51,145 nucleotides of DNA from an uncultured Candidatus Berkelbacteria bacterium (lineage in GTDB: Bacteria; Patescibacteriota; UBA1384; CAILIB01), in contig CAILIB010000015.1 in the NCBI GenBank assembly GCA_903834195.1, positions 1 through 51,145 of the forward strand, in the 5' to 3' direction. The translations under genes were made by a program, and so were the position numbers. How positions within the stretch are numbered: position 1 is the first letter of the stretch; each line of letters begins with the position of its first letter. This document shows, piece after piece, positions 14,560 through 19,906 of this stretch. Below the pieces are notes generated by a model, which made no database searches, had not been told where the DNA came from, and worked only from the letters and a program-made list of their open reading frames with translations.

Positions 14560-14997
14560 TCAACAAAGACTATCCATTATTCCCAGGAACTGCGTTGGAG
14601 TTACAACCTGAACATCTCGGTATACACCTAAAATAAGCAGATCTTTATCGCCACTAATAATATATGTACATCCGCCTAGGATTGCAGTTTCAAGAACTTT
14701 ATTATCATCAGGATCTCGACTAGCCTCAACTGTTACTGAACCGAGCGCCACCATAGTAGTGTCCTCCCGAATAGAGGCCTCAAGTAAGGTTAGCTTGGGA
14801 ATAAACAAGGGAAATTTTTGAGTAATCTTCCGTCTTAGCTCACTCAACAACTCCTCGCTTACAACTACGATAATTTCTCCATGAATAAAGCGCTCAAGAA
14901 CCGTACCCGGAGAACCTACAAAAACGAGTCCGGATATCCAAACGTTCGTATCTATCACAACTCGAGGAACCTCTTTGTGTCGTCGAGGTTTAGTCAT
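14560..14997 (-). CDS. PIN-domain (VapC-like) toxin
   Basis: 'RVVIDTNVWISGL...ELLSEL...SRDPDDNKVLETAI...IISGDKDLL...VVTP' PIN motifs; start overlaps the antitoxin stop. Confidence 0.9.
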   Translation of the reverse strand: MTKPRRHKEVPRVVIDTNVWISGLVFVGSPGTVLERFIHGEIIVVVSEELLSELRRKITQKFPLFIPKLTLLEASIREDTTMVALGSVTVEASRDPDDNKVLETAILGGCTYIISGDKDLLILGVYRDVQVVTPTQFLGIMDSLC

Positions 14998-15217
14998 TGA
15001 GTAAATCGTAGACCTGTTCTTCACTGGTAATATTCATTACTTCACCAACTTTCCGCCCTGCAGTCATTAGGTCTGTCCAGCGGGCACGCCGTTCAAGGTC
15101 TGCGAGAGCTAAGCGACGAAAATACTCACTTCGACTGCCGAAGTCTTTTTTAACAGCTTGATCGATTTGTTCAAGAAGCACCGTGTCGAGTGCAATGTTT
15201 AGAGTTTTAGTTGCCAT
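14990..15217 (-). CDS. Ribbon-helix-helix (CopG-like) antitoxin
   Basis: 'TKTLNIALDTVLLEQIDQAVK...SRSEYFRRL' RHH pattern directly upstream of the PIN gene. Confidence 0.85.
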   Translation of the reverse strand: MATKTLNIALDTVLLEQIDQAVKKDFGSRSEYFRRLALADLERRARWTDLMTAGRKVGEVMNITSEEQVYDLLND

Positions 15218-15239
15218 ATAGCAAGTTTAATATATGGAC

Positions 15240-16890: not shown

Positions 16891-17065
16891 GAGAGGTAGG
16901 GATGACGTTCGCTTTCTGAACCTTTCACTCCGTATTTAAGCGGTTCAGAAGTGCTACACTAACTTCACTCTTTTCTCTGCAAAGTATGGTTTAGGCGAAG
17001 TCGAACCCGGTTTCGAATCTCGACTCGAAGACAAAGAAAAAGACCCCGAATGGGGTCATTTTCTT
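16891..17065 (-). repeat. tRNA-Ser 3'-fragment unit, copy 1 (degenerate), with 97-bp structured insertion (16904-17000) and terminal hairpin
   Basis: gagaggtagggat|insert|tcgaaccc equals the tRNA acceptor/T-arm antisense; insert matches 19593-19689 at 88/97 by manual count; hairpin aagaaaaagacccc-gaat-ggggtcattttctt at 17034-17065. Confidence 0.85.
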
Positions 17066-17195
17066 AGGCGGACTGCATGCGCTTTCTTTTGAACACCTGA
17101 TGGAGTGGTTAGACCAGTTGAGGTTAGCCTATGAAGATTAATTATATTACGAGTATAATAAGGTTGGAGATAGATAAAATTTAACGGCTCTGAGA

Positions 17196-17224
17196 TTGAT
17201 AAAAGCGTACTTTTATGGTATTAT
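17196..17224 (+). promoter_or_regulatory. Sigma70 promoter inside cassette 1
   Basis: TTGATA (17196-17201), 17 bp, TG-extended TATTAT (17219-17224). Confidence 0.6.
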
Positions 17225-17378
17225 CACGCCGTACTTTTACAGATTGATATCTTGATTTGAGATGGGCACCGTTTGCATCACATTTGTGGTGCTTGGAGTG
17301 CTCATCTCAAAGACGTGCCTGCCACAGCTCGACAGTATCGAGCTACGACCGTTCCCGAAAGGAACAAGGAGACTGACC

Positions 17379-17913
17379 ATCCCTTACAACATGCTCAGAG
17401 TGCCGAAAGAATATGCTGGACAGATTCGCGACCTTCTTACGAAGCTCAAAAGTGCTGACGTAGGAGTTGAATGGCTGGAAGCCTTAAAATTGTTTCTTCG
17501 TAAGGAGAACCCCTGGCCCCTCCTCGTCACGATTTTTAAAGGCATCGATGCTCTCATCACAGCCGGTGGCTACCAGAAGCTGGACAGCTGGATCTGCGAT
17601 CAAAACGCACCCCAGTATATCCACACTGGCAGTGACACAGTGGTCGAGTACCTCTATTTGGGAGCTTTGAGCTCTTCAGAAGAAGGTCTCGATAAGATGA
17701 AGGCGATGGGCTACCGCCCAGCACAAGACCCTGAAGTACTCGCTCAAGATATGAAGCATCCCGACCAACTGGTCGAGAGAAACCCTGTCGTTGTTCTAGG
17801 CTCGGTCTGGCAGAATCGCAATGGCAACCGCAACCGCGCTGATTCTCAACCGCAATGGTGCGAACCGCAAGGTCAACCTAAATTGGTGGAGCAACAGGTG
17901 AATCTCGAACTGA
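17379..17913 (+). pseudogene. Decayed CPR-type gene resembling a DGR target, with an Asn-codon-rich 3' end
   Basis: AAGGAG lies 7 nt before an in-frame ATC (possible mutated start; next ATG at 17391). 'LKLFLRKENPW...PVVVLGSVW', then a +1 frameshift near 17835 and TGA at 17899 within 'NRNGNRN/ALILNRNGANRKVNLNWWSNR*ISN'. Confidence 0.6.
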
Positions 17914-18233
17914 TGTGGAAGGGATTCGAACACCCTAACCTGAAGAAAATTTAATTAAGACAAAAAGAGCCAAAATGGCTCTTTTTCTGAGGCTTCTAAC
18001 CTGTAGTTGAAACATTTGGCGGACTGGATGCACTTTCCTTCGAACACTTGATGATCTGGATTGAGCAATTAAGAAGAGTATATGTTAAGAAGTAGAATCA
18101 GTTCTTAATAAGGTAACAGTGGCTACGATTTCTCATATGCTGGTATTTGCGAGTATTGAGATGTATTAGGTTAGGAACCTTTCTGCTATAAGAAAGGTAT
18201 GCTCTTGGAGCTAGTATTGCTACGGAGGATTGA

Positions 18234-19316
18234 ATGGAAAGGACATTTAAAAATCGAAGTATCGGAATCAGCGGACTAATGTCGGCAAATGAAGTGATTT
18301 CTATGCACGCACTTTTTATCCGACCCTGGGGTACCTATCACGCCGGGGAATACCAAAGCGGTGTGTATCCTGAGATAAGTCTCGGGGCAAACGTTTCTTC
18401 TGAATCACTTAGGACGGCGGAAGCTAACCCTGCTAGACTCTTGCCAAGCGTAGATCAGCTTGGTGACATCTTCTTTCAAGTAGGATGGCTTGAAATGGGT
18501 CGCAGCTTTGCTTGCTTCACTGCACCGAGTGATGAAGGGTTGGCTGATGAGTTAGAGCTTCTTTTTACGAGGTGCCCCTGTGAGGGTATTCAGCTCAACA
18601 TGCTCTGGCCAAACCCGACGGAGGTTGCACGCTTCCGGGAGAAACACCCGCACACACGCCTTACCCTACAAATCGGTCGTAACGCTCTAAACGAAGTTGA
18701 ATGGAACCCAGAAACACTTGTGAAGGTTGTTGAGCACTACTTTGGAGACATCCAGGCAGTGCTGCTTGACCTGAGCGAGGGAGAGGAGTTCACCTTTGAC
18801 CCTGAAGACTTAAAGCCGATCGTTGAAGCACTGATGCGCTTCCATAACCTTGAAATCGGGGTTGCGGGATGGCTCTCTGCTGAATCGATGCACCTGATTG
18901 CGCCGCTCGTTTCCATTTGTTCCTACCTTTCGGTAGAGGCAGGAGAGGTTGGGGGTAAGCTCCGTAACCCAGACGGCAGCTTCAACTATGAAGCGGTGGA
19001 CGCGTACCTTAAGGCGGCGTTTGCTGTCCTTTACGGTGAAAAGGAAATGCCTGATCTTGAGGCTGAACCACGGAGAGAGGAGCCGCATGGCCCACCTATT
19101 TCAATTCATGGAGCACAGCGTCAATTCGGACATCTCTCATCAATAAACTACTGGGGTGCAACGGCAGAGATCGAAGATGGGCTTCGCAGCTCTGGAAGAG
19201 GTCGACCAATCTGTCTAAAATGCGGGGAGCTCATGTTTCCTGCTGACGATCACGGCAGGTACACCTGTATTTGTAGCCTTGGAGATGTTGTTGATCTTGC
19301 AATGGACGACTTCTAG
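18234..19316 (+). CDS. TrpF-like TIM-barrel hypothetical protein with a C-terminal Cys-rich (CxxC...CxC) domain
   Basis: 'GIQLN', 'LTLQI', 'VLLDLSEG', 'IGVAGWLSAES', 'SVEAG...KLR' follow the PRA-isomerase-like barrel pattern; 'CLKCGELMFPADDHGRYTCIC' at the end. Confidence 0.55.
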   Translation: MERTFKNRSIGISGLMSANEVISMHALFIRPWGTYHAGEYQSGVYPEISLGANVSSESLRTAEANPARLLPSVDQLGDIFFQVGWLEMGRSFACFTAPSDEGLADELELLFTRCPCEGIQLNMLWPNPTEVARFREKHPHTRLTLQIGRNALNEVEWNPETLVKVVEHYFGDIQAVLLDLSEGEEFTFDPEDLKPIVEALMRFHNLEIGVAGWLSAESMHLIAPLVSICSYLSVEAGEVGGKLRNPDGSFNYEAVDAYLKAAFAVLYGEKEMPDLEAEPRREEPHGPPISIHGAQRQFGHLSSINYWGATAEIEDGLRSSGRGRPICLKCGELMFPADDHGRYTCICSLGDVVDLAMDDF

Positions 19317-19397: not shown

Positions 19398-19575
19398 AAT
19401 ACTTTTTCTAAAATATAAGTTCGAAATAAAATGAATGACCAAATTGCCTTCAGGTCAAAACCGAACAGAGAGCATGTGATATTGAACACCTCCAACCTGA
19501 ACAATACAAATTTAAACCAGAAAAAGAGCAGTAATGGCTCTTTTTCTGTGGCTTCTAACCTGTAGTTAAAACATT

Positions 19576-19816
19576 TGGCGGAGAGGTAGGATGACGTTCG
19601 CTTTCTGAACCTTTCACTACGTATTGAAGCGGTTCAGAAGCACTACACTAACTTCGCTCTTTGCTTCGCAAAGTATTGTTTAGGCGAAGTCGAACCCTCC
19701 GCTTCGCGGTACGGGTTCGCATCCTTACAGAAAACAATAAAACACACACCCGTCTGGAACGACTCCGCAGGTACATTATTGTACCGAGGACTAGTGACAG
19801 ACGGGTGTGTGTTTTA
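19576..19816 (-). repeat. tRNA-Ser 3'-fragment unit, copy 2 (241-bp period), with 97-bp structured insertion (19593-19689)
   Basis: tggcggagaggtagg identical to 19817-19831; at|insert|tcgaaccc; followed by an inverted copy gggttcgcatcct and a 20-bp perfect inverted repeat (19737-19756/19798-19817). Confidence 0.9.
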
Positions 19817-19906
19817 TGGCGGAGAGGTAGGGATTCGAACCCTAGATACAGTTGCCCGTATGGCGGTTTTCGAAACCGCTGCTTTCGACCACTCAGCCAC
19901 CTCTCC
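19817..19906 (-). tRNA. tRNA-Ser(CGA)
   Basis: ggagagg acceptor stem, D arm, gcggt-TT-CGA-AA-accgc anticodon arm, long variable arm, GGTTCGAATCC T arm, discriminator G and encoded CCA. Confidence 0.97.

Follow-up and report, generated by a model that had tools for sequence, protein, structure and literature searches.

Start-less reading frames behind a Patescibacteria tRNA-Ser gene: probable C-terminal helices of large serine recombinases on attachment-site arms

An attachment site can lie inside a gene of the element that carries it. The integrase gene of Mx8 extends across attP, and integration alters the C-terminus of the enzyme (PMC4383910). In integrases of the SSV1 type, att lies within int, and integration leaves an orphan C-terminal piece of the gene at the far end (PMC5861418). 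In mycobacteriophage BPs, integration at a tRNA swaps the C-terminus of a repressor whose gene spans attP, and this acts as a switch (PMC9262239). Tandem accretion at tRNAs, with degenerate elements pushed outward, has been described for tycheposons, which mostly have tyrosine recombinases (474/501; bioRxiv 2020.12.28.424599). Serine recombinases were not known to target tRNA genes as of 2014, according to PMC4383910.

The locus described here lies in a stretch of 51,145 nucleotides from an uncultured Candidatus Berkelbacteria bacterium (the window), which is contig C15 of a 1.13-Mb, 76%-complete genome. Behind its tRNA-Ser(CGA) gene there are two similar short reading frames without a start codon, called tails below. 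They are very probably the C-terminal helix of a large serine recombinase (LSR), carried on the attP' arms of two tRNA-Ser(CGA) islands that lost their recombinase or never had one. The two tails likely mark leftover one-gene islands.

Two tails behind tRNA-Ser(CGA)

The target, tRNA-Ser(CGA), lies on the minus strand at 19817..19906 and is preceded by yidC, rnpA, rpmH and dnaA, as read from their translations. Along the plus strand, a host-type trailer with a terminator is followed by a core, tail 1, one gene, and arm 1 with a terminator. A second core, tail 2, one gene, and arm 2 with a terminator and a copy of the tRNA end come next. From the end of arm 2, a 241-nt insert leads to the tRNA. 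A tRNA-end core, a terminator and a tail make up the joints between units. Two successive insertions behind tRNA-Ser(CGA) would be expected to leave the whole series in this order.

Tail 1 (17067..17141, plus strand) sits on the outermost att arm, of the B-core-P' type. Its core occupies 17067-17072 and its TTTGAACAC motif 17088-17096. The trailer upstream of it holds a terminator-like hairpin (17042..17057, minus strand) that resembles the trailers of tRNA-Asp and other tRNAs in the same genome. Tail 2 (18017..18095, plus strand) forms an internal junction of the P-core-P' type, with its core at 18017-18023 and its TTCGAACAC motif at 18039-18047. Both cores copy the 3' end of tRNA-Ser(CGA). 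Both tails match the tail profile, with scores of 48.7 and 49.9, whereas the reversed genome gives at most 10.3.

The gene of unit 1 (17262..17954, plus strand) encodes 230 aa without a Pfam or NCBIfam family, and its 3' end runs into the arm 1 motif. At 17800-17930 this Asn/Arg-rich end is split over two frames and fused to the motif; it is presumably similar to a frameshifted variable-repeat region of a diversity-generating retroelement target. Arm 1 (17926..18016, plus strand, P-type) is non-coding, with a TCGAACAC motif 92 nt before the core and a terminator hairpin on the tRNA strand at 17962-17986. The gene of unit 2 (18234..19316, plus strand, 360 aa) gives a weak lead to a PRAI-like barrel and has a paralogue, 28% identical, elsewhere on the contig. 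Arm 2 (19441..19590, plus strand, P-type) is also non-coding. It holds a TTGAACAC motif 95 nt before the core, a terminator at 19518-19548 and a 15-nt copy of the tRNA 3' end at 19576-19590. The DNA behind tRNA-Ser(GCT) on contig C16 matches arm 2 with 89% identity over 150 nt.

A tRNA-trailer module of about 110 nt occurs twice near these units and represents a separate repeat family. Copy A (16900..17008) lies outside both units and copy B (19589..19697) within the 241-nt insert. Of the 16 copies in the genome, 11 follow a tRNA 3' end by no more than 700 nt, and a direct repeat of that end, 9-22 nt long, is often present. The module has no Rfam match and forms a small-element family apart from the tail units. 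In the Rfam scan, the tRNA alone scored above threshold. Just beyond the array, at 14560-15230 on the minus strand, a PIN-domain gene and a short upstream frame are likely a toxin-antitoxin pair. A 1149-nt contig of sequencing run X1 matches window 17031-17096 with 5 differences. This copy of trailer, core and tail is absent from the assembly, and may come from another tRNA-Ser array or from another organism.

The original prediction described two start-less frames, at 17067-17141 and 18018-18095, that differ mainly by synonymous codons. Re-reading the sequence reproduced both peptides and both positions, as well as all seven synonymous codon pairs. The two conservative changes that it listed (L/I and D/E) are real; the list was incomplete, since H/D, E/I, L/R and A/V bring the amino-acid changes over codons 1-22 to six. 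Codons 23-24 add E/V and D/K. If the 18 differences in codons 3-22 fell at random, the probability of at least seven synonymous codons would be 0.001 to 0.011, varying with the transition bias assumed, so an excess of synonymous changes is present. The pN/pS between the tails is 0.29 in the tail frame, and the remaining forward frames give 0.75 and 2.96. A value of 0.35 in one reverse frame is to be expected when third positions coincide.

The first 6-7 nt of each frame are the antisense 3' end of tRNA-Ser(CGA), which places the start of both frames at a recombination core, as predicted. Neither copy has an upstream gene of its own. Start codons are absent before both cores: tail 1 has 24 open codons upstream without ATG, GTG or TTG, and tail 2 is preceded by the reported in-frame TAA (17997-17999), with six sense codons between the two. 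Since the window arms beside the cores are non-coding and contain an in-frame stop, both copies would be untranslatable even on an excised circle.

Recombinases that end in the tail

A DNA pattern made from the motif found 104 stretches in public genomes, and among the 80 titles listed most belong to Patescibacteria lineages. Loci with long flanks provide 81 distinct tails. A tRNA lies downstream of 32 of these, in every case with its 3' end towards the tail. In most of the 32, the first 4-7 nt of the tail copy the end of that tRNA.

Conservation of the reading frame can be judged from codons 15-22, the part not fixed by the search pattern. In-frame stops fall there in 8 of 98 tails, against 46-69 in the other five frames (61-69 and 46-51). 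The pN/pS of these codons is 0.28 in frame against 1.06 and 1.73, based on 86 close, non-independent pairs. Hydrophobic residues recur at tail positions 8, 11, 12, 14, 15, 18 and 22, the pattern of an amphipathic helix.

The tail belongs to a large serine recombinase, not to a tyrosine integrase. The original prediction had taken the motif for the C-terminal helix of a gene that spans attP, and natural LSRs with Resolvase and Recombinase domains do end in it. An example is L072, a 583-aa ORF with both Pfam domains. The LSRs ending in the motif are L072/P0001, P0115 and P0173, with P0218, P0169 and P0161 as shortened forms. The serine-recombinase order of Pfam domains is found in L072, L086, L068, L027, P0173 and P0169. 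The top Foldseek matches of the LSR are serine integrases, down to E 4e-20.

Among the 240 homologues listed (the best 120 of 148 and the best 120 of 196), conservation ends at one glycine, after which the sequences differ. Six end in this motif, one being the query and three stopping early. Long antisense-tRNA peptides end 122 others, 71 stop within 8 residues of the junction, 24 have other ends and 17 were unparsed. Other tails occur within the same LSR families, and the tail helix is not universal in them. The tRNA-coded ends vary from 3 to 100 residues in length and are therefore unlikely to be functional.

The LSR gene of the relatives stays open as far as the tRNA junction. It runs into antisense tRNA or into the tail of a following island, always in the same frame. 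Readthrough into the tRNA occurs at 42 of 52 parsed LSR loci (81 loci, 29 unparsed) and involves many kinds of tRNA, and 0 of 40 distinct anchored arms are out of frame with the tail. As had been proposed for the integrated state, an LSR at tRNA-Ser(CGA) (L157) reads into the antisense tRNA, with the peptide GGEGEIRT.

Seven intact islands of 5-19 kb have the tail at one end and, at the other, an LSR running into the tRNA, an arrangement that the original prediction had named as support. Three of them come from the LSR loci, four of which (of 81) have a tail upstream, with none on the opposite strand and many flanks too short; the others are L036, L068, L086 and G041. In the six parsed islands the LSR and the tail are in frame, and identity extends over at least core positions 1-4. 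In G041, two LSR islands stand in tandem at tRNA-Gly. The frame of the outer LSR, which is L072, crosses the joint into the tail of the 19-kb inner island, and the inner LSR reads into the tRNA.

In a tree of 43 rows, from which loci with short or unparsed LSRs were left out, the Ser-targeting LSRs form one clade (7 rows, support 100/100). It spans tRNAs with the anticodons CGA, TGA, GCT and GGA, plus one tRNA called Tyr by ARAGORN.

A profile search of 1.84 billion representatives gave 58 matches, all of 31-190 aa and none a full-length LSR; LSR sequence lies in frame upstream in four of them. This outcome speaks against the assignment to LSRs; it would agree with a tail seldom joined to its enzyme in chromosome assemblies, but does not prove it.

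Several LSRs have an ORF of about 120 aa directly upstream, without a Pfam match, which is a candidate directionality factor. The L027/L151 island at tRNA-Ser(TGA) has such an ORF just before an intact LSR of the Ser clade. Also on this island are a Replic_Relax gene and, with scores under the curated cut-offs, genes for a reverse transcriptase and an Avd-like protein. Inside the LSR 3' ends of L036, L068, L086, L151, L159 and L175, about 66-120 nt before the junction, there is an inverted pair of TTCGAACAC-type motifs, 36 nt apart. It is possibly an accessory or autoregulatory binding site.

The attachment sites have short cores of 4-9 nt at the extreme tRNA 3' end. The sequence TTCGAAC is the antisense T-loop motif in tRNA-Ser(CGA). 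The distance from the reference G to its first base is 21 nt in both tails, compared with 16 nt in the tRNA. The zinc-ribbon motif of LI integrase is at 16-24 in attP and 11-19 in attB (PMC3783163), and phiC31 binds at 17-27 in attP (bioRxiv 2025.05.02.651858). A 5-bp outward shift of the motif between attP and attB types is thus found here, on the P'/B' side only; the P arm has no mirror-image motif at the expected position. A second copy of the motif precedes the junction by 66-75 nt in 31 of 40 LSR genes, where 0.008 would be expected per 170 nt. In the non-coding arms of the window it stands 92-95 nt before the junction, and the outermost joints are without it. A crossover at core positions 2-3 fits both the identity at positions 1-4 and the motif offsets, which likely puts it 2-3 nt inside the tRNA 3' end, at the discriminator base and base 72.

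Single-chain models show the tail as a helix on a low-confidence linker (pLDDT 71-78 in P0173, 56-61 in P0001). Modelled as a complex with P0173 residues 285-497, the tail scores 0.75, against 0.01 for the best of 3 controls. Of 157 solved pairs, 116 reach the mark used, as do 2 of 215 mismatched ones, counts that hold only roughly for the alignments used here; a pass is favoured, since the docked pieces are two parts of one natural chain. The runs agree in at least 95% of contacts, with a partner pLDDT of 75-76. The predicted docking site (residues 357-369, 430-468 and 487-496) is the base of the coiled coil, and Trp14, Leu15 and Leu18 of the tail are predicted to be buried.

In phiC31, the coiled coil drives synapsis and directionality (bioRxiv 2025.05.02.651858). 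Because the tail is predicted to pack at its base, integration would deprive the synapsis-controlling part of the enzyme of a folded element. The models suggest that the enzyme of the circle state would be the complete, integrating form, and that insertion would take away its packing helix. It is fairly probable that this loss would lower or redirect LSR activity.

The history of the locus may be pictured as follows. The 3' end of tRNA-Ser(CGA) would have received two islands in succession. In an excised circle, the LSR gene would cross attP and end in the tail. What the zinc ribbon of the LSR binds is likely the near-universal T-loop sequence, and this would explain how one LSR family can use many tRNAs. 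Integration into a tRNA would swap the predicted packing helix for an unconserved peptide. The codon pattern of the window tails was most likely inherited from LSR-bearing ancestors, and their DNA may still serve as an att arm.

Arrays without an enzyme

The window contains no match to the Recombinase, Resolvase or LSR families. Elsewhere, a full LSR is absent from 29 of the 32 tail-to-tRNA intervals, a count in which the 8-kb flank limit favours short, LSR-less intervals.

A scan of 28 proximal arms, 100 tail-side arms and 59 controls found 7 arms that are clear LSR remnants. All that survives in each is roughly the final 22 codons, starting at the upstream motif. Of 25 LSR-less tRNA-proximal arms, 9 retain this motif, compared with 0 of 29 control trailers. 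For the window arms, erosion of islands with selection for the terminator and the att arm is about as likely as not.

Two more specific routes were considered. In the window arms no LSR coding remnant is recognisable: they score as shuffles do (z 0.6 and -0.2) and are negative on the LSR-end matrix, so their origin as decayed LSR coding ends is unsupported. An exact inverted motif pair lies in the LSR 3' end of 6 of 7 islands and 18 of 38 loci. Loss of the LSR by recombination at the centre of this pair was rejected, as the remnants break at the right-hand motif.

The same genome holds further arrays. Behind tRNA-Ala(GGC), at C26:408-6912, each of six tandem units opens with a tail that likewise lacks a start codon but belongs to a second family and is read in another frame (VDLWEKT...FEWLP). 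The pN/pS is 0.23 among these tails and 0.79-0.88 among their arms, which points to tails that were recently part of translated genes. Behind tRNA-Arg(TCG), at C19:6747-14930, there are five tails related to those of the window. Their arms keep TCGAACAC 53 nt before the core, and the outermost tail has a premature stop. In both arrays the tails are mostly one gene apart and the arms are homologous.

Intact LSR genes are present as well. One (C38:20841-22725) runs into tmRNA and another (C19:26211-27811) into tRNA-Glu(TTC), with no stop before either. The one at tRNA-Glu is the genome's sole member of the tail-bearing LSR family; it falls outside the Ser clade, on a long and unsure branch. A candidate third type of tail, LPDPLKVRTVLEQ, lies at C15 about 84970-85048 on the minus strand. 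It has a tRNA-Gln(CTG) core and is about 19 kb from tRNA-Gln(CTG).

No tails were found in viral contigs by scans with the peptide pattern or the DNA pattern. LSR scans of viral contigs gave 0 and 1 locus, and no circular or phage form was seen. At ten loci around tRNA-Ser or yidC matches, in genomes of the same taxonomic family, there was no tail or LSR in flanks of at most 1.5 kb, several of them cut by contig ends. Neither a circle joint nor an empty-site joint appeared in three sequencing runs of one study, a result from assembled contigs only that carries no evidential weight.

The units without an integrase may instead be live, non-autonomous cassettes. They would keep a minimal attP, running from the TCGAACAC motif to the core together with the tail arm, and be moved in trans by an LSR elsewhere, each cassette giving its tail to any resident LSR behind which it lands. 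The G041 LSR, completed by its neighbour's tail, is what such a mechanism would produce. The scarcity of full LSRs in the tail-to-tRNA intervals, the one-gene spacing and homologous arms of the Ala and Arg arrays and the recurrence of arm 2 at a second Ser tRNA fit it too, as do the retention of the upstream motif in proximal arms and the fact that all 7 remnants start there. However, the flank limit biases the first of these counts, and the premature stop in the outermost Arg tail speaks against live units. Arm 2 was not found in 161 other genomes of the class or, by exact pattern, in metagenome contigs. The pN/pS of 0.23 within one array would also be unexpected for untranslated DNA, unless autonomous islands often renew the tails. 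Such cassettes are possible but rather doubtful. A general scheme for Patescibacteria, with one LSR family that recognises the universal T-loop and with integron-like one-gene cassettes at tRNA 3' ends that are moved in trans by serine chemistry and carry a plug-in helix completing and switching on a resident LSR, seems a little less probable still, and on balance unlikely.

Other readings question the role of the codons or the identity of the enzyme. Were the tail conserved only as a DNA binding arm, the codon pattern would be a by-product. The TTCGAACAC motif keeps the same DNA offset in the Ala-array tails, which are read in another frame, so part of the conservation is at the DNA level. 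Yet the lack of in-frame stops and the low pN/pS reach codons 15-22, which, at 42-66 nt from the core, lie outside the usual extent of an att half-site; the motif forms the end of natural proteins, and its helix is amphipathic. This makes a purely DNA-level role very improbable. Nearly as improbable is that each frame is an independent small gene with a non-canonical start, acting in trans on the LSR, for example as a directionality factor. Purifying selection among the tails of one array, the docking of the tail as a separate chain in the model and an internal ATG at codon 12 of both window copies agree with a small gene, but codon 12 is Met in just 6 of 98 relatives and no start codon stands upstream of either core. 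In addition, the N-terminal parts of predicted short ORFs with the motif are unrelated, and promoter-like sites are at chance level (3 found, 3.3 expected). Finally, the owner of the tail could be a tyrosine integrase whose gene attP divides, like those of Mx8 or SSV1, and both tRNA targeting and attP-spanning genes are documented for such enzymes (PMC4383910, PMC5861418). This is barely credible: all five full-length or nearly full-length motif-ending proteins scanned with Pfam (L072, P0115, P0173, P0218 and P0169) carry serine-recombinase domains, and the genome's single tyrosine recombinase match (Phage_integrase) is on another contig, C37.

Significance and comparison with known systems

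If the tails are LSR helices on attP' arms, as preferred here, they point to a candidate mechanism for the directionality or shut-off of serine integrases that needs no separate factor, with the state of the DNA rewriting a predicted packing helix. They would also add tRNAs to the target range of these enzymes. An LSR family that uses the conserved T-loop and a few acceptor-end bases could supply integrases usable in many hosts. For Patescibacteria, the 25-residue motif offers a sensitive way of spotting island ends. Finders that require an integrase and a tRNA fragment would miss such islands, because the cores are 4-9 nt long and 29 of 32 intervals have no integrase.

In the literature covered, which mostly leaves out subscription journals, no description of the tail-bearing LSR family was found. 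An integrase gene that crosses attP is already known for tyrosine enzymes; here the arrangement is extended to a large serine recombinase. As in the Mx8 and SSV1 systems, the att site lies inside the integrase coding sequence and the target is a tRNA, but the enzyme is not a tyrosine recombinase.

Mx8 intP/attP is similar in that the integrase gene spans attP and its C-terminus changes on integration. It differs in having a tyrosine recombinase, where the present system has an LSR, a tail of about 25 residues, a core of 4-9 nt, many tRNA targets and arrays of orphan tails. Studies reported on this system include Tojo 1996, Tojo and Komano 2003 and Magrini 1999. The SSV1 enzyme, also a tyrosine recombinase, is interrupted within its gene, whereas here the last helix alone is exchanged and the catalytic and DNA-binding domains stay intact. 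BPs has a tyrosine integrase, and what integration takes from its repressor is an ssrA-like degradation tag; here it is the recombinase that would lose a predicted packing helix.

Islands built by tycheposons share tandem accretion at a tRNA, and differ in their mostly tyrosine recombinases. One-gene or recombinase-less units also occur in arrays in integron cassette arrays and ccr-less SCC elements. An integron, however, has an adjacent IntI with attI. Here no IntI is adjacent, and each joint consists of a tRNA-end core with a coding relic after it.

With the serine integrases of LI/A118, phiC31, Bxb1 and SPbeta, the tail-bearing family shares the Resolvase, Recombinase and zinc-ribbon domains, the coiled coil and the 5 bp shift between attP and attB. 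It is set apart from these phage enzymes by an attP that lies inside the gene, by its tRNA target, and by an identity of only 16-20% to the top ten solved chains.
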